This document shows positions 2 through 11,576 of a stretch of 11,576 nucleotides of DNA, one piece after another (the first letter of the stretch is position 1; each line of letters starts with the position of its first letter). The notes below the pieces were generated by a model. It made no database searches. It was not told the origin of the DNA and saw only the letters and a list, made by a program, of their open reading frames with translations. The position numbers and the translations under genes were made by a program. This DNA is from Candidatus Zixiibacteriota bacterium. Lineage in GTDB: Bacteria; Zixibacteria; MSB-5A5; GN15; FEB-12. The stretch lies in NCBI GenBank assembly GCA_041742355.1, contig JBGSIV010000283.1, forward strand, positions 1 to 11,576, written 5' to 3'.

Positions 2-934
2 GATCAGTTCGATTTCCGGATGGAAACGATCGATTCGTGGATCGAGTCGCTCTGCCTGCGGCCCGGGGACGTCGCCGCGGTTGTCGGCCGCGGCGCGCCG
101 CTCCGTCCGCTTGAAGGCGGCTCCTACCGTATCTCGCCGCAAATGCTCGACGATGTGCGGACAATGCGCTACTCCAACCATGCCTCCAACCTCGGCTGCC
201 TGATCGCCCATCACCTCGGCGAGCGTTTCAAAGTGCCCTCGCTCATTTCCGATCCGATCACAGTCGACAATTTCACCGACATCGCCCGCGTGTCCGGCAT
301 CCCTGAAATCGAGCGCAAGTGCCGTGTGCATGCCCTCAATATCAAAGAAGTGAGCCGCCGCGAGGCTCACAAAATGGGAAAGACGCTCGAAACCGCGAGT
401 TTCGTCGCCTGCCACATGGGGGGTGGCGTGTCGGTTGCAGCGCTGCGCGAGGGGCGGGTAGTTGACGTCAACGACGCTCTGCTGGGTATGGGGCCGTTTT
501 CCCCCGACCGGGCCGGCGCGCTTCCGATCGGCGGGTTGGTCAAACTCTGCTACTCGGGGAAGTACTCGGAAAAAGAGATGGTTGACAAGCTGTCCAAGAA
601 GGCGGGCCTGCTGGCCTATGTCGGCGAGTCCGATTTGCGTGCGGTGGAAAAGATGATCGACGGCGGCGACGGGAAGGCGCTTCTGTACTTCAATGCCATG
701 GCCTACCAGATCGCCAAGGAGATCGGGGTCGCCTCGGTCGCCCTGGAGGGCCGGTTCGACGCCATCATCCTCACCGGCGGCATGGCCAACTCCTCCCGGC
801 TGTGCGGCGAGCTCCGCCGGTACGCCGGGTTCCTCGGTGAATTCCGCGTCGTGCCGGGCGAGTTTGAGATGGAAGCGCTGGCGGCGGCCGGAGTCCGGTT
901 CCTCTCCGGCCAGGAACAGCTTAACGAATACTAG
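2..934 (+). CDS. buk: Butyrate kinase (acetate/butyrate kinase family), 5'-truncated by the window edge
   Basis: Frame is open from base 2 (DQFDFRMETID...), so ATG 20 is internal. Buk motifs are present: GRGAPLRPLEGGSY, HASNLG, DPITVD, HALN, HMGGGVSV, DVND, GPFSPDRAG, MAYQIAKEIG, LTGGMA, PGEFEMEAL. Lies next to ptb-like genes. Confidence 0.95.
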   Translation, partial: DQFDFRMETIDSWIESLCLRPGDVAAVVGRGAPLRPLEGGSYRISPQMLDDVRTMRYSNHASNLGCLIAHHLGERFKVPSLISDPITVDNFTDIARVSGIPEIERKCRVHALNIKEVSRREAHKMGKTLETASFVACHMGGGVSVAALREGRVVDVNDALLGMGPFSPDRAGALPIGGLVKLCYSGKYSEKEMVDKLSKKAGLLAYVGESDLRAVEKMIDGGDGKALLYFNAMAYQIAKEIGVASVALEGRFDAIILTGGMANSSRLCGELRRYAGFLGEFRVVPGEFEMEALAAAGVRFLSGQEQLNEY

Positions 935-951
935 CCGAAGGAAATGCGACC

Positions 952-1902
952 ATGTCCGACCCGGCCATTCACTCATCGGAGCAACTGATCGAGCGCGCAC
1001 TATCCATCGCTCGCGAGGGACGCAAGAAGACTGTAGCGGTTGCGGCGGCACAGGATGTCGATGTCATCGATGCCGTGACACAGTCGCACGCCGACGGTTT
1101 TCTCGACGCCGTGTTGGTCGGCGACAGGGACAGAATCGTCGCGCTTGCCCAGGAAAACGGAATCGATATCGGCGGCCTGGAAGTGGTGCATCAGAAAGAT
1201 GTCACGCAGGCGGCCCACGGTGCGGCCCGGCTGGCATCGGAAGGGAAAGCCGATGCAATCATGAAAGGTTTCCTGCCGACCTCGTCGCTTCTCAAAGTAG
1301 TGCTCGACAAGGCCTACAACCTCCGCGGACCGAATACTCTCTCGCATTGCGCGGTACTCGACATCCCGGGCTACCACAAGCTGCTCAACTTCACCGATGG
1401 CGGCATGGTGGTGCGCCCGGAACCCGACCAGAAGCTGCAGATTCTCGAGAACGCCGTGCTTGTAGCCCGGGCGCTGGGGCTGTCGCCGGTGAAAGTCGCA
1501 GTATCAGCCGCGGTCGATCGTCCGGCCGACTACTCCGCCCATCTGCTGTCGGATCTTGATTTCGTGATTCCAAGCGCCCTGAAGAAATTGCCTGACCTGG
1601 TGATCCAGGGGCCGCTGACCCTCGATGTCGCGACCTCAAAAGACGCCGCGCGGGCTTACGGTGTCTCCGGTCAGGTAGTGGGCGACGCCGACATATTCCT
1701 CGTTGATTCGATCGAGGAGTGCAATATCATTGCCAAAGCTCTGATCAACTTTGCCGACGCAGTTTTCGCCGGCGTGATTGTCGGGGCCAAAGTGCCGGTT
1801 TCGCTGGTTTCCCGGACCGACTCCGTCGCCAACAAAAAAACGTCGCTCGCAATTGCCTGCGTCCTGGCGGACTACTACGCGCAGCAGCGGGTGTGGGGGT
1901 AG
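952..1902 (+). CDS. ptb: Phosphate butyryltransferase / PTA_PTB family phosphate acyltransferase, paralog 1
   Basis: Motifs VAVAAAQD, ADAIMKGFLPTSSLLK, LSH, FTDGG, GDADIFLV, AGVIVGAKVPVSLVSRTDS..KKTSLAIA. AAGGA RBS about 9 nt upstream. Follows buk. Confidence 0.9.
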   Translation: MSDPAIHSSEQLIERALSIAREGRKKTVAVAAAQDVDVIDAVTQSHADGFLDAVLVGDRDRIVALAQENGIDIGGLEVVHQKDVTQAAHGAARLASEGKADAIMKGFLPTSSLLKVVLDKAYNLRGPNTLSHCAVLDIPGYHKLLNFTDGGMVVRPEPDQKLQILENAVLVARALGLSPVKVAVSAAVDRPADYSAHLLSDLDFVIPSALKKLPDLVIQGPLTLDVATSKDAARAYGVSGQVVGDADIFLVDSIEECNIIAKALINFADAVFAGVIVGAKVPVSLVSRTDSVANKKTSLAIACVLADYYAQQRVWG

Positions 1903-1911
1903 GAGGCGAAC

Positions 1912-2850
1912 ATGAACAACCAGACCATTGCGATTCCTGAGATCAATACGATGGAAAAGCTCCTCGCCCGCGCCCGGGAGCTGGGCGGCAGCAGATCGCT
2001 CCGCGCAGCGGTACTGATGCCTCACCAGCCCGACATCCTCCGGGGCTGCCGGTTGGCGATGGATGAAGGCTTCATATCGCCAATTCTCATCGGAAATAGG
2101 GACTGTATCGACAGAGCCCGGGCCGCTGCCGACGGCTGCCTCGGGAAGGCCGAGGTCGTGAATGCCGAGTTCGTCGACGATGCCGTTCAGGCCGCGCTGG
2201 GAATGGTAAACGATGGGACCGTCGATCTGCTCGTTCGCGGCGCCGCTCCCCAGCCCGATTTCGTGCGCCTGCTGACTACCGAATCTGAAGGATTCGTCGG
2301 CAAGGGCACTGCCCTCGGGCACATTGCCTTCATTAAACCGGAGCGGTACCAGAAGCTGCTGGCTCTAACCGATGCGGTCGTGCACCCGGAACCCGATCTC
2401 AAACAGAAGATCGCCCTCACCGAGAATCTCGTTGCCGCTTGTCGCAAGGCAGGCATTGACATGCCCCGAATCGCCGTGCTGGCCGCTGTCGAAGTGGTCT
2501 ACCCGCAGATGCCCGTCACGATGGAAGCGGCCATCCTCGCGAAAATGGGGGAACGAGGGCAGATCAAGGGAGCATTTGTCGACGGCCCGCTGTCGTTTGA
2601 TTGTGCCATCGATCCCTTGGCGGCCGAAAGCAAAGGAATCCGAAAGTCCGAGGTGGCCGGACAGGCTGACGCCCTGCTGGCTCCGAACATGGAAACAGCG
2701 CACGGCGTCTATAAGGCTATGGCGCTTTTTGGTCGGGCGAAACTGGGCGGTGTGCTTTTCGGCGGTCGCGTGCCAGTCGCGATGCCGTCGACATCAGACT
2801 CAGTCGAGACTATATTCCACTCGATCGCGCTCGCCTGTCTCCTGCGCTAA
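1912..2850 (+). CDS. ptb: Phosphate butyryltransferase / PTA_PTB family, paralog 2 (lacks the SR catalytic Arg)
   Basis: Motifs LTDAVVHPEPDLKQK, AAVEVVYPQMPVTMEAAILAKMGERGQIKGAFVDGPLSFDCA, KGI...VAGQADALLAP, SIALA. AGGAGG RBS overlaps the stop of paralog 1. Confidence 0.85.
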   Translation: MNNQTIAIPEINTMEKLLARARELGGSRSLRAAVLMPHQPDILRGCRLAMDEGFISPILIGNRDCIDRARAAADGCLGKAEVVNAEFVDDAVQAALGMVNDGTVDLLVRGAAPQPDFVRLLTTESEGFVGKGTALGHIAFIKPERYQKLLALTDAVVHPEPDLKQKIALTENLVAACRKAGIDMPRIAVLAAVEVVYPQMPVTMEAAILAKMGERGQIKGAFVDGPLSFDCAIDPLAAESKGIRKSEVAGQADALLAPNMETAHGVYKAMALFGRAKLGGVLFGGRVPVAMPSTSDSVETIFHSIALACLLR

Positions 2851-2952
2851 CCGGTGACCGCTGCCGTCGCCACCGAAGTGCGCCAGTAGTCGCTTGCAGT
2901 ACAATAGCTTACCTCCCTTGCAGCGACCTGCCTGCCCGGCCGACTTCCCGCC

Positions 2953-2984
2953 GAACCTTCCCGTTCCACCGCTGTTCTTATACT
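2953..2984 (+). promoter_or_regulatory. Candidate promoter for the small ORF (GAACCT-N17-TCTTA, RpoE-like, with overlapping TATACT -10-like hexamer)
   Basis: GAACCT at 2953-2958, TCTTA at 2976-2980, TATACT at 2979-2984, about 45 nt upstream of ATG 3030. Motif match only. Confidence 0.3.
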
Positions 2985-3029
2985 GCGCACACGTACGGGT
3001 CCAAGTAGCCGTAACTGGAGGAACAAATC

Positions 3030-3317
3030 ATGACCAAACGACCAGATCGCACTCGTCAGACCGGAATGAGAGGCATGGGCCGGGGATTCGGGGTCGGGGC
3101 GGTTTTTGGAGCGCTCGCCGCCTGGGTGGCCACTGACATAAACAAGCCTAACAGCACGCTCCGCCGCTGGATCGAGATCGGCCGCCGCAAGCGCGAGCGG
3201 ACGCGGCTTGAGAACGAACTGAAACGGGCGGCCGATGAAGCCGCGGCCGTGGGGGAAGAGCTGATCGACGAAGCCCGCCGACCGGGCCAACTGCCACCCG
3301 ACGAAATGCCGATTTGA
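3030..3317 (+). CDS. Small hypothetical protein with one Gly/Ala-rich hydrophobic segment and a charged helical C-terminus
   Basis: GGAGG RBS at 3017-3021, 8 nt before the ATG. Segment GFGVGAVFGALAAWVA. Fills an otherwise empty gap and is followed by a strong hairpin. Confidence 0.75.
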   Translation: MTKRPDRTRQTGMRGMGRGFGVGAVFGALAAWVATDINKPNSTLRRWIEIGRRKRERTRLENELKRAADEAAAVGEELIDEARRPGQLPPDEMPI

Positions 3318-3330
3318 CGACAGACATCGC

Positions 3331-3362
3331 AGTCACGGAAGGCACGGCGGCCTTCCGTGACT
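3331..3362. terminator. Perfect 13-bp hairpin between convergent genes, probable terminator or 3'-end protector
   Basis: AGTCACGGAAGGC-acggcg-GCCTTCCGTGACT between the stops at 3317 (+) and 3387 (-). No real U-tract on either strand. Confidence 0.65.
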
Positions 3363-3386
3363 TGGGAATCATGTATCGGAGGCTGA

Positions 3387-4583
3387 TCAGGCAGCAGCAG
3401 TCCGATCGCAGACTTGCCGGAACACGCGCATGAAATTCCCGCCGAGAATCTTCGCGATATTCTCCTGCGTGTACCCTCGCCGCACCAGTTCCTCCGTGAT
3501 CCGAGGCATCCCGGTGCAGTCTTCGAGACCCTTCGGCATGGCGAACACACCGTCAAAGTCCGATCCGAGGCCGACATAGTCCGGTCCGACCAGTTGCACG
3601 ATGTAGTCGATATGATCGCACACCGTGCTCACAGTCACCGGCGCTATGCTGTCGACGGCCGCTGCAATCGAACCGTACAATTTCCATCGTTCCGCTCGGT
3701 GAAGCGAATCGTTATCCGCGTACAACTGGGCAATCGAGTCCCTTTGTGGCTGGAGTGCTTCCCAGAGCGAGTCGGAGACATGGTTCCAGCGGTCGGAGAG
3801 ATACCCGCTGAAGAAGTTGACGCCGATCATCCCGCCGTTGACGGCGATTGCTCTGATCTGATCGTCGGTCAGATTACGATCGTGGCTGCACAACGCATAC
3901 ACGCACGAATGTGAAGCGATCACCGGATCGGTAGTCAGGCGAAGGATCTCGCTGACCGCCGTGGGATGGGCATGGGATATGTCGATGATCATGCCCAGCC
4001 GATTCATCTCTGCCACGACCGAGCGTCCGAATTCCGTTAACCCGTTGAAGGCCGGAGCCGTGTCGGCCGACGAAATGCACCAGTCGTTAGAGGCTGTGTG
4101 CGTGAGCGTCATGTATCGTACGCCCCGGCCGTAGAAGTGGCGCAGGTTGGCCAGATCGTTGGCAATCGCTACTCCGTTCTCGATCCCCAGGAAGGCCGCA
4201 ACACACCGTGAGGAGACGGCGGACTCGACTTCGGCAGCCGTGCGGCAGGTCGTAATGCGGTCGTCGTATCGGCTAAACTGCGCTTCAAGTGAATCGAGGA
4301 GAAGGTCGGTCTCCGCACGGCAACTGTCGAGCGGGGTCTCAGTGGGAAGCCAGACGGCGAACACTTCGAGGTCGATACCGCCGCTGTCGAGGCGAGGCAG
4401 GTCAAGATGACCGTCGGTACCGATTACTCCGAGATCAACCCCACGACGCAGGCGAAGTGCGGTATCGCAGTGGAGATCCGCTACCAGGGCGGTCAGGTGG
4501 ATTTGAGCCGGGGTGGGTGAGTCGCCCTGACAGCCCAGGGCGAACAGGCCGAGCAGAAGACCTGCGAGCGGTGATAGTCTCAT
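3387..4583 (-). CDS. Membrane dipeptidase (peptidase M19, amidohydrolase fold), predicted lipoprotein
   Basis: Motifs DLHCDT, GIENG, GVRYMTLTH, GLTEFGRSVVAEMNRLGMIIDISH, IASHS, RNLTD, HIDY, VGLGSDFDG, KILGGNFMRV. Signal peptide ends in FALG-C18. AGGAGG RBS at 4588-4593. Confidence 0.95.
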   Translation of the reverse strand: MRLSPLAGLLLGLFALGCQGDSPTPAQIHLTALVADLHCDTALRLRRGVDLGVIGTDGHLDLPRLDSGGIDLEVFAVWLPTETPLDSCRAETDLLLDSLEAQFSRYDDRITTCRTAAEVESAVSSRCVAAFLGIENGVAIANDLANLRHFYGRGVRYMTLTHTASNDWCISSADTAPAFNGLTEFGRSVVAEMNRLGMIIDISHAHPTAVSEILRLTTDPVIASHSCVYALCSHDRNLTDDQIRAIAVNGGMIGVNFFSGYLSDRWNHVSDSLWEALQPQRDSIAQLYADNDSLHRAERWKLYGSIAAAVDSIAPVTVSTVCDHIDYIVQLVGPDYVGLGSDFDGVFAMPKGLEDCTGMPRITEELVRRGYTQENIAKILGGNFMRVFRQVCDRTAAA

Positions 4584-4610
4584 GGTTCCTCCTGAGTCCG
4601 GACGCGGCGT

Positions 4611-5324
4611 TTAGAAATTCGCAGTGATACCGACCTGGATCATCAGCATGTCCGTTTCAGTCCTGACAATGTCGTAGATCACTTCGCTGTCGACAATGTC
4701 CTTTCGCCGCGCGTAATCGGCTTCGGCGCCGATCAGGTACCGGGCGCCGGCATCTATGAGCAGCGTAACCGGTGAACCTGCCGATCCACCCGACCATACG
4801 CGGACGAGCAGGCCGCCTCCCACGCCATAGCTCAGCGCGGCGTCATCGAAATCGGTCGAACTCACGACTTCCTCATTATCATCTTCACCCTGAATCTTCG
4901 TCTCCATGAACAGGTAGTTGAAACCGAAGAGGCCGTCGGCATAGGGACGCAGATCCCCCTCCTGATACTGGGCGCGCAGGAGCAGGTGCCCCTGGAACGA
5001 ATTGTTGGTAGTGTTCACCTCGACCGTGACGTCCGGGATGGTATTGGAGAACGGTTCGCGCCGTGTATCGCTGCTGAAATTGAGGTAACCCAGGGAGATG
5101 CCGAGACCGATCGGCGACCGGTTCGGCGTCCAGATGAAGTTGCCGCCGCCGCCGTAAGCGTTGTCGTCGATAGCTTCTTCAAAATCCCCCTGCGGAAGAC
5201 CGGCGAGGAAGTGGAGACTGGCCTGGAAGTTCTGATGGTCGACTGCATACACGTTTGTGAAACAGCAGGCGGTAAGGATGGCGGCCGTCAGGCACAGAAC
5301 GGCAAACCGGAATCTCGGGCGCAT
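4611..5324 (-). CDS. Outer-membrane beta-barrel protein (small, OmpA/OmpW-like transmembrane architecture)
   Basis: Start moved from 5393 to ATG 5324 because of the AAAGGAGA RBS and the signal peptide MRPRFRFAVLCL...VYA. Amphipathic strands (RPYADGLFGFNY, LSYGVGGG, IDAGARY) and a C-terminal Phe (QVGITANF). Confidence 0.8.
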   Translation of the reverse strand: MRPRFRFAVLCLTAAILTACCFTNVYAVDHQNFQASLHFLAGLPQGDFEEAIDDNAYGGGGNFIWTPNRSPIGLGISLGYLNFSSDTRREPFSNTIPDVTVEVNTTNNSFQGHLLLRAQYQEGDLRPYADGLFGFNYLFMETKIQGEDDNEEVVSSTDFDDAALSYGVGGGLLVRVWSGGSAGSPVTLLIDAGARYLIGAEADYARRKDIVDSEVIYDIVRTETDMLMIQVGITANF

Positions 5325-5422
5325 ATACAGGTACTCTCCTTTGCATGCGGCAGCCGAAAGCAATCGGCCGAAACCGCGGTCCCAGTCAGGCAAGAGTCAG
5401 TTCAATACCGAAGAATACATGT

Positions 5423-5448
5423 GTCGCCGATATGCCGAAAGAGTTTTC
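5423..5448 (-). promoter_or_regulatory. Candidate ECF-sigma promoter (AAAC-N16-CGAC) for the beta-barrel/dipeptidase pair
   Basis: Minus strand reads gAAAAC tctttcggcatatcgg CGAC, just downstream of a terminator and about 100 nt upstream of ATG 5324. Confidence 0.45.
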
Positions 5449-5465
5449 TCGATCCACCGGTGAAC

Positions 5466-5495
5466 AAAAAAGACGCCCCGCTTGAGCAGGGCGTC
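5466..5495 (-). terminator. Rho-independent terminator of the 570-aa gene
   Basis: Minus strand GACGCCCTGC-TCAA-GCGGGGCGTC-TTTTTT: 10-bp stem with one G-U pair followed by U6, about 30 nt after the stop at 5527. Confidence 0.9.
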
Positions 5496-5526
5496 ACAAT
5501 TCGGTCGTAAGTCCCCTCGGTAGGTC

Positions 5527-7239
5527 TTACTCGATAGCCCGGAACAGTCCCGACTGCACCGTGATTGCGCCGTAGGCCGACGGAATGTAGGTGGCCGTGA
5601 GAGTCGGATTCATCATGTTCGTCCTGCCGTCGCCGCCGTTTTGCGGGTGAGGCTGCGCCTCGAGGTAGAACGTATAGGTGCCCGCCTCTTTGGTGTAGAT
5701 CCGCTGGACCGCCATCGAGTAGTAGTGCCGCCGGCTGGGCGAATCGTAGTTGCCGGAACCGGTGACGGCATAGAACGGAGCGGTATAGCTGCCGCCTTCG
5801 GCCTCATCGATCTGCATGATCGACTGGTTCCGCGAATTCGACCCGTACGCCTCCAGCGTCGATGTTCCGGACAGCAGGATATAGCCGGCCGCAGGAATGG
5901 TGATCGTCACGGAGGTAAGGGTCTGCATCGGCCCGCATTGCGTGAGGAAGATCGTTTGCGATGAAAAGGTCCCCGCCAGTCCCGACTCGTTCTGCAGTTC
6001 GTCGGAGCCAATAGCGTTATTTGGCAGTATGACTGCGCTGTCTCCGAGTTCGGAGACGATCTCCAGCGCCCCGGAGGGGTTGTTGGTCCCGATGCCGACC
6101 CCTCCCTTGGCGCGGATGATGAACTGGTCGGGAGCGGTCGTCGCGAAATCCTCGTCGGTATGATCGGCCCAGACAAAGGATCCGTCGTGAAGCGCCTTGG
6201 CGCGCCGTCCGGCCGCGTGTGAATACTCGCCATCGGCCTGATTGAGATTGCCCCCCGGCACCACGCCGAATGCACCGGCGGCCGCATTGTCCAAACCGCC
6301 GCTGACGACCGCATGCGGTCCGGTCGCGCTGTTTTCTTCGCCGCCCGCCACTACCGCGTAGCCCCCCAAAGCTTCATTGTGTCGACCGCCGCTGACCGTC
6401 GAGCCATCTCCTCCCGCGGTATTCTCATGGCCACCCGCCACAACCGACATCGCGCCATACGTCACATTGCTTGAGCCACCTCCGATAGTGGAAGAATCGC
6501 CATTGGCGGTGTTCTGGAATCCCAGCACGCTGGTCTGGATGCCGGGGCTGCTGTTCTCGCCCATCGTGATCTGGCCCTTGGCGATGATATCGCCGTTCGG
6601 GGCGACAATCAGCGTGGTATCGTCCTCCGTCGCGCCGAACATGACGATGCCATCGTTCAGTATCGTCACCCGCTTCACCGGGTCGGACGAACCGCTCTTC
6701 GAATCGACCGGATCGTACAGCGAGATCGACCCCGCGCCATCCAGGAACCCGAGCTTGATAATGCTGGCCGGGGCCATGGCATCCTTCTGGGGAAAGTAGT
6801 CCGGGTTGAGCAGAGTGAGATCACCGGTCATAACGCCGGCCATGGCGCCGTCGACCGTGCCCACCCGGTAAGCGAAGGGGCTGGCGCCGATCTGTGTCCG
6901 CGGCGTGATAGCCTCGCCGTTGACCGAAATCTCCAGCCAACGGCCGGGGCCGGCGAGCAGGGAATCGGTCAGCGGAGTCAGGCTGCCGAGGAACACGGAA
7001 AACAACCCGCCGGACAGCGTGACGCCCGGATGCGTCTCGGTCCACAGGAGCGTCCCCCCGGTGGCATTATCGTACATCGAGAACACCAGGTTGGCCGTGC
7101 CCTCTGCGGACGGCTCACCGAGCGCATCGGTCAAGCGTCCCTGATAGCTGATAACCGACGGGATGGCCGGGAAAACAGTGGACAGGGAAACCAGTGACAG
7201 GACGAGTGTGCAAAGAAGGCCACGATACATACGCTTCAT
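5527..7239 (-). CDS. Secreted multi-domain surface / fibre-like protein with 15-aa beta-roll repeats, function unknown
   Basis: AAGGAG RBS at 7245-7250. Sec signal ends ...TVFPA. N-terminal IPSVISYQGRLTD...LWTETH...GLFSVFLGS domain, about 8 N-x-A-x-G-x-x-S/A-x-V-x-GG repeats, GGVGIGTNNP motif, C-terminal beta-rich domain. Confidence 0.85.
   Translation of the reverse strand: MKRMYRGLLCTLVLSLVSLSTVFPAIPSVISYQGRLTDALGEPSAEGTANLVFSMYDNATGGTLLWTETHPGVTLSGGLFSVFLGSLTPLTDSLLAGPGRWLEISVNGEAITPRTQIGASPFAYRVGTVDGAMAGVMTGDLTLLNPDYFPQKDAMAPASIIKLGFLDGAGSISLYDPVDSKSGSSDPVKRVTILNDGIVMFGATEDDTTLIVAPNGDIIAKGQITMGENSSPGIQTSVLGFQNTANGDSSTIGGGSSNVTYGAMSVVAGGHENTAGGDGSTVSGGRHNEALGGYAVVAGGEENSATGPHAVVSGGLDNAAAGAFGVVPGGNLNQADGEYSHAAGRRAKALHDGSFVWADHTDEDFATTAPDQFIIRAKGGVGIGTNNPSGALEIVSELGDSAVILPNNAIGSDELQNESGLAGTFSSQTIFLTQCGPMQTLTSVTITIPAAGYILLSGTSTLEAYGSNSRNQSIMQIDEAEGGSYTAPFYAVTGSGNYDSPSRRHYYSMAVQRIYTKEAGTYTFYLEAQPHPQNGGDGRTNMMNPTLTATYIPSAYGAITVQSGLFRAIE
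6165..6555 (-). repeat. Protein-level tandem repeat of about 15 aa (45 nt), roughly 8 copies, degenerate at DNA level
   Basis: NSSPGIQTSVLGFQ / NTANGDSSTIGGGSS / NVTYGAMSVVAGGHE / NTAGGDGSTVSGGRH / NEALGGYAVVAGGEE / NSATGPHAVVSGGLD / NAAAGAFGVVPGGNL / NQADGEYSHAAGRR. Confidence 0.9.
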
Positions 7240-7303
7240 ATAGACTCCTTAGCGGGAAAGCGGGTAGAGTTCAGCGGGAGGGGTCAGGTATCCCGGGGTC
7301 ATT

Positions 7304-7331
7304 ATCATATTGTGGCAATCCGGCTTGCCAA
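7304..7331 (-). promoter_or_regulatory. Candidate sigma70 promoter (TTGGCA-N16-TATGAT) overlapped by the inverted repeat TGGCAA-N6-TTGCCA
   Basis: -35 at 7331-7326, -10 at 7309-7304, palindrome at 7313-7330, about 65 nt upstream of ATG 7239. Confidence 0.4.
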
Positions 7332-7421
7332 TCGGCTCCGGACCTGTTTCTTCCTCTTCTTGCCGGATAACCGGCTTCGGGCCTTAAGGTAGATAAAATA
7401 TACCTGCGAGATCTACGTTAA

Positions 7422-7450
7422 CAAGTAAACAGTTTCGGCATTTTTGTCAA
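7422..7450 (-). promoter_or_regulatory. Candidate distal sigma70 promoter (TTGACA-N17-TACTTG)
   Basis: Perfect TTGACA at 7450-7445 in an AT-rich patch. The -10 is weak. Confidence 0.4.
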
Positions 7451-7524
7451 GCACAATTCTCCGGAAGGGCTGCAAGAGACCGGACTCCTCTGGTTCGAGG
7501 ATGGGGAAGAAGGTGAAACTTTGC

Positions 7525-7553
7525 TTGACTCCGTCGTTTAACCCTGATATTAT
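7525..7553 (+). promoter_or_regulatory. Sigma70 promoter for the manC operon (TTGACT-N17-TATTAT, with extended TGn)
   Basis: TTGACT at 7525-7530, 17-nt spacer, TG at 7545-7546, TATTAT at 7548-7553, 38 nt before GTG 7592. Confidence 0.75.
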
Positions 7554-7591
7554 CAACCAATTAGCCGGATTTCTGAAAGGGTTGTGACACT

Positions 7592-8671
7592 GTGATTTTT
7601 GGAGTAATTCTGGCCGGCGGCCGCGGAGAGCGCTTCTGGCCATTGTCGCGCATTCAGAAGCCCAAGCAGTTCCTTCGGTTAACTTCCGACCGAATGATGC
7701 TTGAGGAGACGATCGACCGAGTCCTTCCCCTGATCCCGATGGATCGAATGCGGGTGGTCACGGGAGAGGAAATGCGCCCGTACGTGTTGCGGAACTGCTC
7801 GGCCCTGACCGACCGGCACATTCTGGCCGAACCCTTCGGCCGAAACACGGCTCCGGCCATTGGTCTTGCGGCGGTCCACCTTCTCCAGGAGGATCCGGAT
7901 GCCGTGATGGTTGTTCTTTCCGCCGACCACCTCATTCGACCGCCCGAGAAGCTTCTTCGGATCATTGAGGCCGGCACCAATATCGCCGCTGTTGAAGACA
8001 GCCTGATCACCATCGGAATCGTACCCACCCGTCCGGAAACGGCGTACGGCTACATCAAGCTGGGTGACCTGTACAAGTTGGAGAAAGACAGCCCGGTGCA
8101 CTACGTTTCCGGCTTCACCGAAAAGCCCCGCGCCGCGGTCGCGCTCGATTACTACTATAGCAACAAGTACCTCTGGAACAGCGGCATGTTCATCTGGTCG
8201 GCCCGGTCCATACTCGCGGCCATGCGCAAATGCGAACCGGAGCTGGGCCGGCAGCTTGACGAGTACGCACGGCATGTCGGTACAGCCTCCGAGGGTGAGG
8301 CCCGGGCAAGATTCTACAACGAGGCCACGGGCATCTCCATCGATTTCGCCGTACTTGAAAAGGCTGACAACGTCTTGACCATCCGCGCGGACATCATTTG
8401 GGACGATGTCGGGGACTGGCGCGCGCTTGAGCGGTATAAGCAGAAGAACCGCGACAATAACGTAATCGTCGGGGACGCGGAAACGTTCGAAACGTTTGAA
8501 ACGACCATTTACAACGATGGTGACGGTCTCGTGGCCACCTTGGGCGTGTCGGACCTGATCATCGTGCAGGCAAACAACATCACGCTGGTGGCGCACCGAT
8601 CCCGATCTCAGGACATTAAGAAGCTCTTGGCCAGGTTGCATGAATCGGAAGAACACCGCAAATATCTGTAA
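7592..8671 (+). CDS. manC: Mannose-1-phosphate guanylyltransferase (monofunctional, no C-terminal PMI cupin)
   Basis: Motifs VILAGGRGERFWPLSR..KPKQFL, EPFGRNTAPAI, LSADH, GIVPTRPETAYGYI, FTEKP, WNSGMF, SIDFAVLEK, WDDVGDW. GTG start with AAAGGG upstream. Confidence 0.95.
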   Translation: MIFGVILAGGRGERFWPLSRIQKPKQFLRLTSDRMMLEETIDRVLPLIPMDRMRVVTGEEMRPYVLRNCSALTDRHILAEPFGRNTAPAIGLAAVHLLQEDPDAVMVVLSADHLIRPPEKLLRIIEAGTNIAAVEDSLITIGIVPTRPETAYGYIKLGDLYKLEKDSPVHYVSGFTEKPRAAVALDYYYSNKYLWNSGMFIWSARSILAAMRKCEPELGRQLDEYARHVGTASEGEARARFYNEATGISIDFAVLEKADNVLTIRADIIWDDVGDWRALERYKQKNRDNNVIVGDAETFETFETTIYNDGDGLVATLGVSDLIIVQANNITLVAHRSRSQDIKKLLARLHESEEHRKYL

Positions 8672-9254
8672 GCTGCTGCTGCTGTGCCTCCTCTTGGCGG
8701 CGGGCGGCTGCGTACCGTCGACCCGGGGCGGCGAGGAAGATCGGGTTGCCGGAACCGGATCGAGCGACAGCCTGGCGTTCGATCCGCTGGCGCTCAAGGA
8801 AGACAGTGAGGTTGTTCCGGAACGATATCCCGCCGATTCCCGTCGTACCGGCGAGACCGTTACGACTGACAACGGCTCCGCCGCTGAGCAGGCCGACGGC
8901 CAAGTGGATCAAGCCGAGCCGATCGGCGGTCAGGTCTTCAAGGTGCAGGTGCTCTCAAGCAAGTTGTTCGGTGAGGCCAAACAGGCCCAGCGTGTTGCCG
9001 AAGAGATTTTCGATCAGCCGGTCGCGCTGGATTACGAAGTGCCGTATTTCAAAGTCAGAGTCGGCGCCTTCCGTGACCGCTATGAGGCCGAGCGGTATTC
9101 TCAGCGCGTCCGTGCCGCCGGCTACGCTGACGCCTGGGTCGTGGCGGCCACGATATCGGCCCGGAAAGCGGCTCCAATGTATCAGGATGGAAGCCAGGCG
9201 CCCGCGCCAGTCGATTCGACCACCGCTGATTCATCGTCGATCGGAAACGAGTAG
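8640..9254 (+). CDS. SPOR-domain (peptidoglycan-binding) lipoprotein
   Basis: Signal ends LLLAAGG-C24, then an acidic linker and the SPOR-like FKVQV...YFKVRVGAFRDRYEAERYSQRVRAAGYADAWVV. Overlaps the manC end by 32 nt. Confidence 0.85.
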   Translation: MNRKNTANICKLLLLCLLLAAGGCVPSTRGGEEDRVAGTGSSDSLAFDPLALKEDSEVVPERYPADSRRTGETVTTDNGSAAEQADGQVDQAEPIGGQVFKVQVLSSKLFGEAKQAQRVAEEIFDQPVALDYEVPYFKVRVGAFRDRYEAERYSQRVRAAGYADAWVVAATISARKAAPMYQDGSQAPAPVDSTTADSSSIGNE

Positions 9255-9262
9255 TGGCGGCT

Positions 9263-9895
9263 ATGGGGGTGCGCATTCTGCCTGTCGATCCGGCCAACCC
9301 GGCGCCGGCTGTTATAGATGAAGCGATCGGAATTTTGAATGCCGGGGGATTACTGGTGGCGCCGACCGAAACGCGTTACGGACTCCTGGCTCGCGCCGAC
9401 AGTCAGATGCCGGTCGAACGGTTGATCCATGCCAAGCGGCGATCGCCAGCCAAGCCGGTCTCGATATTTGTCGCCGCCACGAACCGGATTCAGAGTGCCG
9501 GCCGGCTGAGCCCGGTTGCGAGGCGATTGGCCGAACGGTTTCTGCCGGGACCTCTCACGCTGGTCCTGCCGGCCGTGGGACAGTGGCATCCGGTCATAGT
9601 ACCGGAACACGCAATTGGAGTTCGCGTGTCGTCATCGCCGCTTGTCGCCGGTATTATGAGTCGCGTGGCATACCCGGTCACGGCGACATCGGCGAACATA
9701 TCGGGTGATGAAGAAAATGAGCGAATTGAACAGATTGTCGATTCATTCGGTTCGGATGTGGATTTGTACCTCGACGGCGGCCCGCTGACCGGCCTGCCGT
9801 CGACGGTGGTTGACTGCACCGTGGACCCGCCGCGCGTGTTGCGCGAAGGGGCGATCGATCCGGAAGCCATCGAGCGAACAGCGCGAGGAAAGTGA
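9263..9895 (+). CDS. tsaC: L-threonylcarbamoyladenylate synthase (YrdC/TsaC type, no Sua5 C-terminal domain)
   Basis: Motifs PTETRYGL, KRRSPAKP, LPGPLTLVL, IGVRV, TATSANISG, PSTVVD, LREGAI. Start is ATG 9263 or GTG 9254. Confidence 0.92.
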   Translation: MGVRILPVDPANPAPAVIDEAIGILNAGGLLVAPTETRYGLLARADSQMPVERLIHAKRRSPAKPVSIFVAATNRIQSAGRLSPVARRLAERFLPGPLTLVLPAVGQWHPVIVPEHAIGVRVSSSPLVAGIMSRVAYPVTATSANISGDEENERIEQIVDSFGSDVDLYLDGGPLTGLPSTVVDCTVDPPRVLREGAIDPEAIERTARGK

Positions 9896-9896
9896 C

Positions 9897-10397
9897 ATGA
9901 GCAGACCGTTTACGATTATCTTCGTCTGTACAGGGAATACCTGTCGGTCGCCCATGGCGGAAGGAGCGCTGCGCATGCTTCTGAACAGGGAACGCCCCGG
10001 CATGTTCGAAGTCCTCTCAGCCGGAATTGCGGCCGCCGACGGCTACCCGGCCACGTTGTACGCAATCGAAGCCGCCCGCATATGGGAGTGCGACATCAGC
10101 GGCCATAAATCCCAACCGCTCACAGGCGAGCTGGTCGACCGGGCCGATCTGATCCTGTGCATGTCCGAGCGGCATGTGAAGGAAGTTCTGCGGCTGCGGT
10201 CGGGTGCCCGGGAGAAGACATTCTTGTTCAAGAATTTCCCCGAACCATCTCCGTTCGGCGAAGGGGTCGAGGATCCGATCGGCCAGTCGCTCGACCGCTA
10301 TAACGAGACGTTCCTGGAAATCGGCGAGTACCTGGGCAAGCAATTGCCGGAAATTGTAAAAAGAATTGATGAGAAGACTAATGCCGCGCAAATCTAA
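9897..10397 (+). CDS. ywlE: Low-molecular-weight protein phosphatase, probably protein-arginine phosphatase (YwlE type)
   Basis: P-loop FVCTGNTCRSPMAE, SAGI, ADLILCM...H, EDPIG. Start moved to ATG 9897, 1 nt after the tsaC stop. tsaC-ywlE adjacency as in the Bacillus ywl locus. Confidence 0.85.
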   Translation: MSRPFTIIFVCTGNTCRSPMAEGALRMLLNRERPGMFEVLSAGIAAADGYPATLYAIEAARIWECDISGHKSQPLTGELVDRADLILCMSERHVKEVLRLRSGAREKTFLFKNFPEPSPFGEGVEDPIGQSLDRYNETFLEIGEYLGKQLPEIVKRIDEKTNAAQI

Positions 10398-11220
10398 GCT
10401 GCAGGTAACCGTCCTCAGCCTCCTCGTTTTTATCGGCCTCGTGCCGCTGGTGTATTTCACGGCTGGCCGTATCGAAGGTGTGGCGGCCAGCCAGGTGGCG
10501 CCCGGTGAGTCCTCGCCGGTCGACAGCCTCGACCGTTCTGTTGACAACACCGCTTTCGGCGTGGGAGAGAACCTCGTATTCGACGTCGGGTACGGCTTCA
10601 TAAACGCCGGGACCGCCTCGATGGGAGTGCTCCGTCTGATAGAGTACGAGAATCGTCCCTGCTACCAGATACAGACACGCGCCCAGTCGAACAGCTTCTT
10701 CTCGACCTTCTTCCGGGTCGATGACAAAGTCGAATCGATTGTTGACGCCGCCGGTCTTTTCCCGTGGCGCTTCGAGAAGAATCTGCGCGAAGGGGGATAC
10801 CGATCCGACCGGCTCTACACCTTCGACCAGCGCGGACACCTCGTGTACTATCAGAAGGACACGATCGAAATCCCCCCGTTTACCCAGGATCCGCTCTCGG
10901 TTCTGTATTACGTGCGCACCCAGAATCTCGAAGTAGGAAAATCTCTGTTTATCGACAACTTCACCGACGGCAAGCTGTACCCGCTGGAAGTCCGGGTTCT
11001 CGAGAAAGAGCGGATCACCGTCAAAGCGGGCACCTTTGATTGCATTGTGGTCGAGCCGCTTCTTCAGGCCGCCGGTGTGTTCAAGCACGAGGGGAAACTG
11101 AAAGTCTGGCTGACCGATGACCGGCTCAAGATGCCGGTACTTATGAAATCTAAAGTGCTTGTGGGATCCATCAGCGCCGAATTGACCAGCTACGAGCTCG
11201 GCGATATCGACGCCTTTTGA
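10381..11220 (+). CDS. DUF3108-like exported beta-rich protein
   Basis: N-terminal TM/signal, then AFGVGENLVFDVGYGFINAG, FFRVDD, REGGY, QDPLSVLYYVR, VKAGTFDC, VWLTDDRLKMPV, VGSISAEL, which I recognise as DUF3108-like. Start at 10381 (alternatives 10366, 10369), overlapping the phosphatase stop. Confidence 0.75.
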   Translation: MPRKSKLQVTVLSLLVFIGLVPLVYFTAGRIEGVAASQVAPGESSPVDSLDRSVDNTAFGVGENLVFDVGYGFINAGTASMGVLRLIEYENRPCYQIQTRAQSNSFFSTFFRVDDKVESIVDAAGLFPWRFEKNLREGGYRSDRLYTFDQRGHLVYYQKDTIEIPPFTQDPLSVLYYVRTQNLEVGKSLFIDNFTDGKLYPLEVRVLEKERITVKAGTFDCIVVEPLLQAAGVFKHEGKLKVWLTDDRLKMPVLMKSKVLVGSISAELTSYELGDIDAF

Positions 11221-11222
11221 AC

Positions 11223-11576
11223 ATGCCGCCAAAGAAACACAAGATAGGGCCGATCGACCTCTCGTCTGTCACCCGCTACAGCATCGCCGAGCGGCCCAGC
11301 AAGACGCATATCAGTGCTTTCAGCCGTCCGATGGACCGGGTCGACGACGCCGACTTCTTCGAATCCCTGCCGCAGTTCCTCAAGGCCTCGGAGTTCAGGG
11401 AATTCATCGACCTCGTCGCAAAGGCTCGGCGCAATGGCCGGCCCTTTCACCTTCTGCTCGGCGCACACACGATCAAAGTCGGCCTCTCACCAATCTTCAT
11501 CGACCTCATGCGCCGGGGAATCGTGACCGGCCTCTCATTCAACAGCGCCGGAGTCATTCACGATCTCGAACTGGCT
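11223..11576 (+). CDS. Deoxyhypusine-synthase-like (GSU2086-family-like) protein, 3'-truncated, absent from the ORF track
   Basis: ATG 2 nt after the previous stop and open to the window end: MPPKKHKIGPIDLSSVTRYSIAERPSK...FFESLPQFLKA...LLLGAHTIKVGLSPIFIDLMRRGIVTGLSFNSAGVIHDLELA. Confidence 0.8.
   Translation, partial: MPPKKHKIGPIDLSSVTRYSIAERPSKTHISAFSRPMDRVDDADFFESLPQFLKASEFREFIDLVAKARRNGRPFHLLLGAHTIKVGLSPIFIDLMRRGIVTGLSFNSAGVIHDLELA

Follow-up and report, generated by a model that had tools for sequence, protein, structure and literature searches.

Cross-subunit contacts have been described for several phosphate acyltransferases of the Pta/Ptb family and for related enzymes. In the Ptb of C. 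acetobutylicum (CaPTB), residues K198, R202 and D211 form, together with E181, the contacts between dimers that build the octamer, and D217 and K254 are joined by a salt bridge across the dimer (PMC9706017). In the M. thermophila Pta (MtPta), the other subunit supplies K257 and Q244 as contacts to CoA (PMC9706017); residue roles in MtPta are given here following PMC9706017, PMC6461089 and PMC12978539. In the literature found, this lysine (K228 in CaPTB, K257 in MtPta) is described as a structural contact only. Mutants of S311 and R312 in the P. gingivalis Pta are inactive. In MaeB, the acetyl-binding Q683 is supplied by the opposing monomer (PMC7902834), and in human NAD-IDH (IDH3) the non-catalytic subunit contributes Lys182 and Asp215 to complete the active-site cleft of the catalytic one (PMC5241874). 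A search of mainly open-access literature returned no heteromeric member of the Pta/Ptb family, in line with an earlier note on this DNA that knew of no heterodimeric Ptb.

The window, a stretch of 11,576 nucleotides from a Candidatus Zixiibacteriota bacterium, carries the gene order buk-ptbA-ptbB (Table 1). The butyrate kinase gene directly upstream of the ptb pair, absent from the earlier note, scores 371 bits against the curated TIGR02707 cut-off of 289 and 386 against 222 for PRK03011. Both ptb reading frames are intact over their full length, as had been claimed, and their products, A and B, share 31% identity (96/312, E 5e-37). The ribosome-binding site of ptbB overlaps the ptbA stop codon (TAG, 1900–1902), an arrangement recognized before, and ends 5 nt ahead of the ptbB ATG; from the sequence, this overlap suggests that translation of the two genes is coupled. 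A scan of the window gave two promoter-like sites (0.5 in shuffles) and two terminator-like sites (2.0 in shuffles), none of them informative. A separate Pta gene is also encoded in the genome, and a PF01515 match separate from B lies in a 784-aa frame on contig C218.

Table 1. Genes, signals and key residues of the buk-ptbA-ptbB locus (positions in the window).
Feature	Position	Strand	Basis
buk, butyrate kinase (5' end cut off by window edge)	2..934	+	TIGR02707 and PRK03011 profile matches
AAGGA, likely ribosome-binding site of ptbA	938..942	+	sequence; 9 nt before ATG
ptbA (P0001, 316 aa, 33.3 kDa), cleft-keeping subunit	952..1902	+	profiles, alignments, fold model
A Tyr236, at the trans Lys position (CaPTB K228, MtPta K257)	1657..1659	+	alignment
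A Glu256, A-specific, at the dimer two-fold axis	1717..1719	+	alignment, predicted complex
A Ser287-Arg288, catalytic SR (MtPta S309/R310)	1810..1815	+	alignment
AGGAGG, ribosome-binding site of ptbB	1901..1906	+	sequence
ptbB (P0002, 312 aa, 33.1 kDa), degenerate-cleft subunit	1912..2850	+	profiles, alignments, fold model
B A192-D224, AVE loop and helix with E194, K211, R215, D224	2485..2583	+	alignment, predicted dimer
B S228-K241 segment, with D230 and K241	2593..2634	+	alignment, published contacts, predicted dimer
B Gly265, in place of a bulky dimer-helix residue (CaPTB V251)	2704..2706	+	alignment; axis position by symmetry

Both proteins exceed the cut-off of PF01515 (PTA_PTB superfamily), and the best sequence and fold match of each is CaPTB (E 1e-55 for A, 2e-53 for B), with fold models of pLDDT 91 and TM about 0.9 to 7VG9 for A, and pLDDT 93 and TM about 0.88 for B. 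Against the canonical Ptb profiles (TIGR02706, PRK05805 and PRK07742), A and B reach 253.7 and 235.2 bits, under the cut-off of 410.5. Two other assignments were rejected: the bifunctional enoyl-CoA hydratase/phosphate acetyltransferase PRK08190, for which the scores are 220 and 237 bits versus 282 and only profile positions of about 158–463 are matched, and a MaeB-type PTA sensor domain, B being a free-standing 312-aa ORF without malic enzyme fusion. The linkage to buk is that of a canonical Ptb, and the residues that a canonical Ptb unites in one chain are divided between two: the cleft residues K/T/N/K/D and the Ser-Arg occur together in A and not in B, the Lys (CaPTB K228) and Glu (E181) together in B and not in A.

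Every motif that had been read in the two paralogs is present. A has MKG (from 1261, M104), SH (131–132), IEECN..K (254–262) and SRTD....K (from 1810, S287), retaining the cleft residues K105, T110, S131-H132, N258, K262, S287-R288, D290 and K295. It further has AVDRPADYSAHLLSDLD, QGP and YG, with D189 and Y236 in place of the partner-facing Glu and Lys. B retains AVEVVYPQMPVT, AAILAKM, RGQI, VDGPLSFD and KGI, and its altered motifs are VRGAAPQ, GH, AH and PSTSD....I. Its cleft is degenerate (R109, Q114, H264, T294, I301), with the equivalents of K105, T110, N258 and R288 gone. At the position of CaPTB K186, B has Gln.

We compared these residues in tree-defined groups of canonical Ptbs, A and B, with sequences dereplicated at 85%. 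The cleft set K105/T110/N258/K262/S287/R288/D290 is complete in 143/154 canonical Ptbs and in every A scored (172/172), compared with 13/145 B, and the partner-facing set E194/D230/K241 in 153/154 canonical Ptbs, 145/145 B and 1/172 A, the last figure owing largely to an E-to-D change. The E181-equivalent Glu is found in 153/154 canonical Ptbs, and Ser-Arg in 176/177 A, with a gap in the remaining one. At the trans Lys position, Lys occupies 154/154 canonical Ptbs and 147/147 B, as opposed to 22/177 A (Arg in 28 more). When pairs were scored with conservative substitutions counted as complete (n = 123), site 1, formed by the A cleft and the B face, was complete in all 123 and its mirror image, site 2, in two. 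Under this lenient scoring, 42 A and 18 B appear self-complete, and in 65 pairs, that of the window included, neither homodimer would be complete. The D217-K254-type bridge is fully kept only crosswise (A K262 and B D230, both 100%), its reverse partners less so (B K268 74%, A D225 86%).

The two genes also travel together. Six Zixibacteria families with 188 genomes were surveyed; a hit was present in 152 genomes, and 146 of these had at least two; the six with a single copy had Ptb-family pieces at contig edges. B directly follows A at 181 of 191 partly redundant A loci, eight of the others lying at contig ends and two being odd, and pairs in the same order occur in other phyla. Contig-edge cases aside, one gene without the other was found in no genome surveyed. 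Exactly one B-model match (E<=1e-76) is present in each of the 147 genomes of the six families that have any, and since intact canonical Ptbs pass this threshold too, no spare canonical Ptb is evident. The presence of buk tracks the pair by family, with the exception of two genomes with A and B (G104, G105), where buk matches only at acetate-kinase level, and one (G061) with buk and no Ptb. Purifying selection acts on both genes (over 13 close locus pairs, the median dN/dS is 0.066 in A, 0.095 in B); because the complementary pattern is in addition conserved in hundreds of orthologs, we rejected pseudogene decay or chance as its source.

Different, complementary losses and side-by-side retention in many uncultured bacteria indicate that A and B likely pair up, and we consider it probable that the products of ptbA and ptbB form a Ptb heterodimer whose single active site is built from both chains. 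Alternatively, A and B could be independent homo-oligomeric enzymes for different acyl substrates, kept together only by a shared buk operon. Other Zixibacteria families do have two intact Ptb paralogs within one cluster, so paired specificities exist, and the phylogeny is divided over an origin of A and B by a single duplication: FastTree joins A and B (0.968, 0.868), IQ-TREE (56 of 479 rows) does not support them as sister clades, and their joining is not rejected by the AU test (p 0.44). Yet the B of the window has no catalytic Arg, a residue without which Pta is inactive, the mirror-image losses extend over several phyla, and the co-occurrence is as strict as described above, which makes independence very improbable. 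The two intact Ptbs of families f12–f15 were also considered as an early stage of A-B and rejected, since no motif is lost in them and they belong to neither the A nor the B clade.

The distribution of conservation bears on a further reading, in which A is an active homodimer with no need of the trans Lys and B, attached to A or in an oligomer of its own, a catalytically dead scaffold, chaperone or acyl-CoA sensor, comparable to the PTA domain of MaeB. Sensor use of a non-catalytic PTA domain is known (PMC7902834), B keeps its oligomerisation face (136/147), and A, with its invariably complete cleft and its self-complete members, is the more conserved protein overall (background entropy 1.47 versus 2.05 bits in B). 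At the 19 partner-facing interface columns, however, the order is opposite (B 1.12 versus A 2.26 bits), a contrast reached by 0/20,000 random column sets, with columns not independent of one another. B conserves the face aimed at its partner's cleft and not its own ligand cleft, whereas the partner-facing surface of A is its most variable part (2.6–3.0 bits at 193–212 and 233–242). Moreover, Glu256 would meet itself at an A-A axis; Glu occupies this column in 175/177 A, 0/147 B and 0/154 canonical Ptbs, which have A/S/T/V there. The window's A has Tyr at the position of a lysine universal among canonical Ptbs, and we regard this reading as unlikely.

A heteromer might also use both sites, the first for catalysis and the second for regulation or a second substrate, much as the mirror cleft of the NAD-IDH alpha-gamma dimer is an allosteric site (PMC5241874). 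The 13 B with a full cleft set suggest that in some lineages the B cleft works or binds a ligand, and basal B mostly keep SR (21/23), with recurring K105R and D290E changes. Against this, the erosion of the B cleft has followed many unrelated routes across the tree of B, the entropy of the cleft face (2.5 bits) lies above the B background, and no new motif is fixed, so that B does not show a second cleft conserved in the manner of NAD-IDH; the B of the window has, in addition, lost the four cleft equivalents named above. Two used sites therefore seem quite improbable, and the varied decay favours relaxed selection on the second site. The word "obligate", used for the pair in the earlier note, appears from these alignments to fit the window and not every lineage, given the full clefts among B and the 50/177 A in which Lys or Arg occupies the column of K241.

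For the single composite site, the alignments and published contacts point to particular elements of B. In a gap-free alignment, B K241 and S228 correspond to MtPta K257 and Q244, and B D230 corresponds to CaPTB D217, which bridges to the partner's K254. B E194, K211, R215 and D224 correspond to the octamer contacts E181, K198, R202 and D211 of CaPTB. Of the earlier proposal that A contributes a cis half and the motifs kept in B a trans half, the core is supported by co-occurrence, cross-conservation and the placement of K241 on a published trans contact; KM..RGQI and the Asp of DGP have to be withdrawn from the active site, as they match the dimer-dimer contacts K198, R202 and D211. A trans role is supported for K241, S228, D230 and the 190–202 loop. 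The AVE loop may be the counterpart of trans-acting loops in IDH or PdxA, a likeness that forms no part of this evidence.

The predicted complex of A, B and CoA scored 0.94, compared with 0.02 for the best of three controls (partner pLDDT 91), and the runs share at least 96% of contacts. This mark is met by 116/157 solved complexes and 2/215 mismatched pairs; as a similar homodimer has been solved (7VG9), it speaks for likeness and not for binding. In the model, A N258, E255 and K262 contact B A192 and F229; B E194 lies outside the predicted A-B contacts. B 190–192 and parts of 197–202 touch A, and A256 contacts B262. Gly265, found in 114/123 B of the Zixibacteria-type subclade, 6/24 basal B and 2/154 canonical Ptbs, is predicted to form a hole facing A Glu256, a contact placed by symmetry and absent from those listed. 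Inter-chain MI-APC on 130 pairs, dereplicated from 150 (effective number 79), gave top pairs that are 2–4-fold interface-enriched with phylogeny uncontrolled; the top 100 include seven interface pairs versus 2.5 expected, the strongest pairs are not at the interface, and the signal was given no weight.

The heterodimer would serve the butyrate kinase encoded next to it by interconverting an acyl-CoA, of short or branched chain, and its acyl-phosphate, probably through ordinary chemistry. Judging from homologous structures, A would supply the cleft, with Ser287/Arg288 for phosphate and catalysis and with Asn258, Lys262 and Thr110 binding CoA and the acyl group. B would complete it across the dimer through Lys241 as a CoA contact, Ser228/Phe229 and the 190–202 loop, and an Asp230(B)-Lys262(A) salt bridge would link B to the A cleft. 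The mirror site, made of the B cleft and the A face, would be dead in the window organism, and A Glu256 at the two-fold axis, together with B Gly265, may disfavour A-A and favour A-B pairing. Since only B keeps the dimer-dimer face, B-B contacts might, more speculatively, hold two heterodimers together as an A2B2 tetramer of about 133 kDa, in place of the octamer ring known from canonical Ptb.

Outside the Zixibacteria-type subclade, most A-type proteins (59/69) retain the octamer contacts. We tentatively propose, at slightly less than even confidence, that Zixibacteria and several other uncultured phyla share an undescribed obligate heteromeric phosphate acyltransferase and that their lineages represent successive stages from homomer to heteromer. 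A would first have gained the axis Glu256 and lost the trans Lys while the B cleft eroded, and Zixibacteria-type A would then have lost its octamer face, so that a ring of A4B4 gave way to a tetramer of A2B2; K228, the lysine invariant in Ptb, would act from the partner subunit.

If correct, this would be the first heteromer known to us in the Pta/Ptb family and a natural complementation experiment, by which the conserved residues of the family could be sorted into cis, trans and higher-order-assembly classes. It would predict a contribution of the partner subunit to catalysis in an enzyme of industrial use, and offer a bacterial series of intermediates for the passage from homomer to obligate heteromer after duplication. 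Neither ptbA nor ptbB would be expected to work when cloned alone, and the annotation of genomes with the pair should probably count a single Ptb activity instead of two.

Among known systems, CaPTB (7VG9; TIGR02706, PRK05805) resembles the locus in that its gene adjoins buk and its conserved D217, K228, N250, K254, S279 and R280 are mostly present in A and B combined. CaPTB is, however, a homo-octamer of one chain, whereas in the window the conserved residues are split over two chains, of which B alone retains the octamer face. The Ptas of M. thermophila (2AF4) and P. gingivalis (6IOX) have the fold, dimer mode and catalytic Ser-Arg in common with the pair, and the trans CoA contacts of MtPta map to B S228 and K241; unlike A-B, these enzymes are homodimers with two equal sites, at about 20% identity to the window pair. 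The alpha-gamma dimer of human IDH3, from the same fold superfamily, would be a working analogue of A-B, and the sequence and model evidence agrees with such a composite site. It differs in chemistry and family, and its second cleft is a proven allosteric site, while the B cleft has no conserved new motif. Finally, the PTA regulatory domain of MaeB is catalytically dead, belongs to the same Pfam family as B and takes one acetyl-binding residue from the opposing monomer. MaeB is a homo-hexameric malic enzyme fusion that keeps its ligand cleft, whereas B is free-standing, has lost its cleft and has kept its partner-facing face.

Neither of the two Ptb paralogs A (product of ptbA) and B (product of ptbB), which are 31% identical, qualifies as a Ptb alone, each failing on one defining feature; together, they are predicted from their residues to work like one Ptb. 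The best solved relative of both by sequence is the C. acetobutylicum Ptb (CaPTB, 7VG9), which is also the best fold match for both AlphaFold models (TM about 0.88-0.90; pLDDT 91 for A and 93 for B). All motifs quoted for A and B in the earlier note are present, and the overlap it described between the two genes was confirmed, as the ptbA stop overlaps the AGGAGG of ptbB.

Features of the window and the evidence for them
Feature	Position	Strand	Evidence
buk, butyrate kinase 3' part	2-934	+	TIGR02707 371 bits, cut-off 289
ptbA, 316 aa	952-1902	+	below Ptb family cut-off: 254 vs 410.5 bits
ptbB, 312 aa	1912-2850	+	below Ptb family cut-off: 235 vs 410.5 bits
Segment of about 4.7 kb separating ptbB from the mannose-1-phosphate guanylyltransferase gene, with a small ORF, an M19 dipeptidase and two ORFs that lack family matches	2851-7591		
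ORF, 95 aa, good ribosome-binding site, one short hydrophobic stretch	3030-3317	+	sequence; no NCBIfam or Pfam match
260-aa protein, signal-like N-terminus, C-terminal Phe	4611-5393	-	sequence; no match in Pfam search
570-aa protein, glycine-rich tandem repeats, GG..N.A.G..S.V type	5527-7239	-	sequence; no match in Pfam search
Ordinary housekeeping genes: sugar-nucleotide transferase, SPOR protein, Sua5/YrdC, low-molecular-weight phosphatase, DUF3108; one cut ORF without family match	7592-11576		

In 45 related loci, the guanylyltransferase gene lies at most 3 kb from ptbA, and locus L081 has it immediately 3' of ptbB. Because of this proximity, the segment that separates the genes in the window looks like a lineage-specific insertion. 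Within it, the sequence of the 260-aa protein resembles an outer-membrane beta-barrel; the 570-aa protein is probably secreted, with repeats that resemble those of adhesin heads.

We aligned 625 proteins (479 after 85% dereplication) and defined groups on the tree: A with 177 proteins (support 1.0), B with 147 (0.93) and a remainder of 154, termed canonical, with one unplaced row excluded. The canonical proteins, a set drawn mostly from a B-profile search that may favour B motifs, have 70 columns with at least 75% conservation; 24 of these are kept by both paralogs, 12 by A only and 13 by B only, while 17 are mixed and 4 are kept by neither. The residues lining the own-chain cleft (K105, T/S110, N258, K262, S287, R288 and D/E290; A numbering) are complete in 143/154 canonical proteins, 172/172 A and 13/145 B, and the partner-facing residues (E194, D230 and K241; B numbering) in 153/154, 1/172 and 145/145, respectively (gapped rows, 5 A and 2 B, omitted). 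With conservative changes allowed, the partner-facing set passes in 42/172 A and the cleft set in 19/145 B; thus, the loss in A is weaker than the strict count suggests.

The same lenient rules were applied to 150 A-B pairs, reduced to 129 by dereplication and to 123 by dropping 6 with gaps. The site combining the A cleft with the B face is complete in 123/123 pairs, and the mirror site in 2/123. At loci L066 and L069, both sites look complete. The window's pair is one of the 65/123 in which neither chain looks self-complete by sequence; A does in 42/123 and B in 18/123. That A and B are two independent enzymes is highly improbable. The proposed obligate pairing would hold for the window's pair, but not for every lineage. 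Decay of the B cleft takes many forms, and 13 loci (L012, L039, L044, L055, L058, L062, L066, L069, L078, L080, L109, L115 and L209) still have it intact, so that dependence is probably fixed in the window's lineage but not everywhere. A regulatory second site, as reported for NAD-IDH (PMC5241874), would fit these intact clefts; the varied decay elsewhere makes it a rather improbable reading.

Related structures indicate what the retained residues may do. In M. thermophila Pta, one subunit contacts CoA through S128, N279, Y282, K283, Q286, T298 and C312, and the other subunit contributes Q244 and K257, according to the text of PMC9706017 (a figure-level assignment of chains could alter details). 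A gap-free count from the DG motif equates the latter two with B S228 and K241. Lysine occupies the K241 position in 154/154 canonical proteins, 147/147 B and 22/177 A, with Arg in 28 further A and Tyr in the window's A. Other papers describe MaeB Q683 as supplied by the opposing monomer (PMC7902834), the MtxX cleft as formed by both monomers (PMC12978539) and Ser-Arg as essential in P. gingivalis Pta (PMC6461089); Ser-Arg is present in A and lost in the window's B. A rival reading, in which A works by itself and B serves as a scaffold or sensor, would agree with the A sequences that look self-complete, but is unlikely, as the window's A has Tyr at the K241 position.

The CaPTB dimer salt bridge, D217-K254 (PMC9706017; numbering is that of the 7VG9 chain minus 20), corresponds to A K262 (100%) with B D230 (100%), and to B K268 (74%) with A D225 (86%); judged by these residues, it is fully retained only crosswise, between A K262 and B D230. 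The KM..RGQI and DGP elements, previously assigned to the active site, instead match CaPTB octamer contacts (E181-R202, K198-D211 and D211-R202; PMC9706017), and thus higher-order assembly. The octamer residues correspond to B E194, K211, R215 and D224, and the K/R/D trio is kept in 136/147 B and 94/154 canonical proteins; among A, 59/69 of the basal but 0/108 of the Zixibacteria-type sequences have it. As the trans-position Lys occurs in 0/69 basal A, A lost the trio later than this Lys.

The predicted A+B complex with CoA, the one pairing modelled, scored 0.94 (best control 0.02), a value reached by 116/157 solved complexes and 2/215 mismatched pairs, with at least 96% contact agreement between runs and a partner pLDDT of 91. 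Since a similar homodimer is already solved, this score measures likeness, not binding. The geometry is more informative: A N258, E255, I259 and K262 contact residues 190-192 and 229 of B, whose segments 228-241 and 197-202 form part of the interface. B E194 is missing from the contact list. Thus, in this model, the retained residues of both chains converge on one cleft, that of A, as the earlier note had anticipated. Entropy is 1.12 bits for B vs 2.26 for A over 19 partner-facing interface columns, where B is far more conserved, 2.52 vs 0.19 over 12 hand-picked cleft-side columns, where A is, and 2.05 vs 1.47 over all columns. Glu256, at the two-fold axis, is found in 175/177 A and never in canonical proteins or B, and Gly265 replaces a bulky residue in 114/123 Zixibacteria-type and 6/24 basal B. 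Two Glu256 would presumably clash in an A-A dimer, whereas in an A-B dimer Glu256 could fill the Gly265 gap, a contact derived by symmetry.

We consider it likely that A and B form a heterodimer with a single working site, the A cleft completed by B, that feeds acyl-phosphate to or from Buk. The Lys241 helix and the 190-202 loop of B would complete the cleft; more tentatively, two B chains meeting at the octamer face that they retain might yield an A2B2 assembly of about 133 kDa. Gene context suggests butyryl- or branched-chain acyl-CoA as substrate: some A/B loci have genes for 3-hydroxybutyryl-CoA dehydrogenase and crotonase as neighbours, and ilvE and acyl-CoA dehydrogenase genes lie beside the canonical Ptbs of Zixibacteria. 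In families f6, f12-f15 and f18, the genomes sampled carry one or two intact Ptbs instead of A/B. In f12-f15 (loci L116-L132), two intact Ptbs of distinct subtypes, DAA/DVA and DGG, mostly share one cluster with ilvE nearby; these subtypes may differ in acyl specificity, or may also mix.

The ptbA/ptbB pattern is real and conserved. A strong A match occurs in 28/40 relatives, nearly always within a buk-A-B cluster, and one further relative has B at a contig end. Across the phylum, 193/285 genomes have a Ptb-type match, and eight families have neither a Ptb-type nor a buk match. The proposed co-occurrence was borne out in six families (188 genomes): 146 of the 152 genomes with a match have at least two, and both paralogs, while the six single-copy genomes (G003, G006, G051, G088, G110 and G173) carry Ptb-family pieces at contig edges. 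A is present in 191/204 partly redundant loci, with B directly 3' in 181 of the 191; eight others stop at a contig edge and two are odd (L187, diverged neighbour; L231, reversed B). A B-model search (E<=1e-76) returned exactly one match in each of 147 matching genomes of these families; because intact canonical Ptbs of other families pass this threshold, no spare canonical Ptb is evident in these 147 genomes. The PF01515 matches in the window's genome (93.8% complete) include no further Ptb-type gene, the others being one Pta and one match in a 784-aa frame. Purifying selection acts on ptbA (median dN/dS 0.066) as well as on ptbB (0.095), as estimated from 13 pairs.

Two single-contig genomes (G104, G105) have ptbA-ptbB and only acetate-kinase-level matches in place of buk, and the 99%-complete G061 has buk and no Ptb. 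Tandem buk genes, two each, occur in L164 and L173, and at L100:1882-3936 a second buk copy, 3' of a separate buk, shares one 685-aa open frame with ptbA, a possible Buk-PtbA fusion. Other irregular loci are probably assembly errors: ptbB spans two frames in L084 and L092, buk and ptbA are broken in L080, and ptbB lies on the opposite strand in L231.

Named close homologs of A and B are mostly from Zixibacteria, and, by source name, A-type or B-type proteins also occur in LCP-89, KSB1, Calditrichaeota, Electryoneaceae, TA06 and CSSED10-310; basal A/B pairs are adjacent in metagenome loci. A forms one clade (support 100/99) and B probably another (88/93); that the two are sisters was recovered by FastTree but not by IQ-TREE, and the AU test did not reject it. 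A literature search of titles and abstract openings, with most subscription papers outside its scope, found no heteromeric Pta or Ptb, and ptbA/ptbB probably encode a hitherto undescribed, heteromeric form of an enzyme that is itself known. The splitting of a homomer into a heteromer is itself a known kind of event, with a precedent in NAD-IDH, which has the same fold as A and B.
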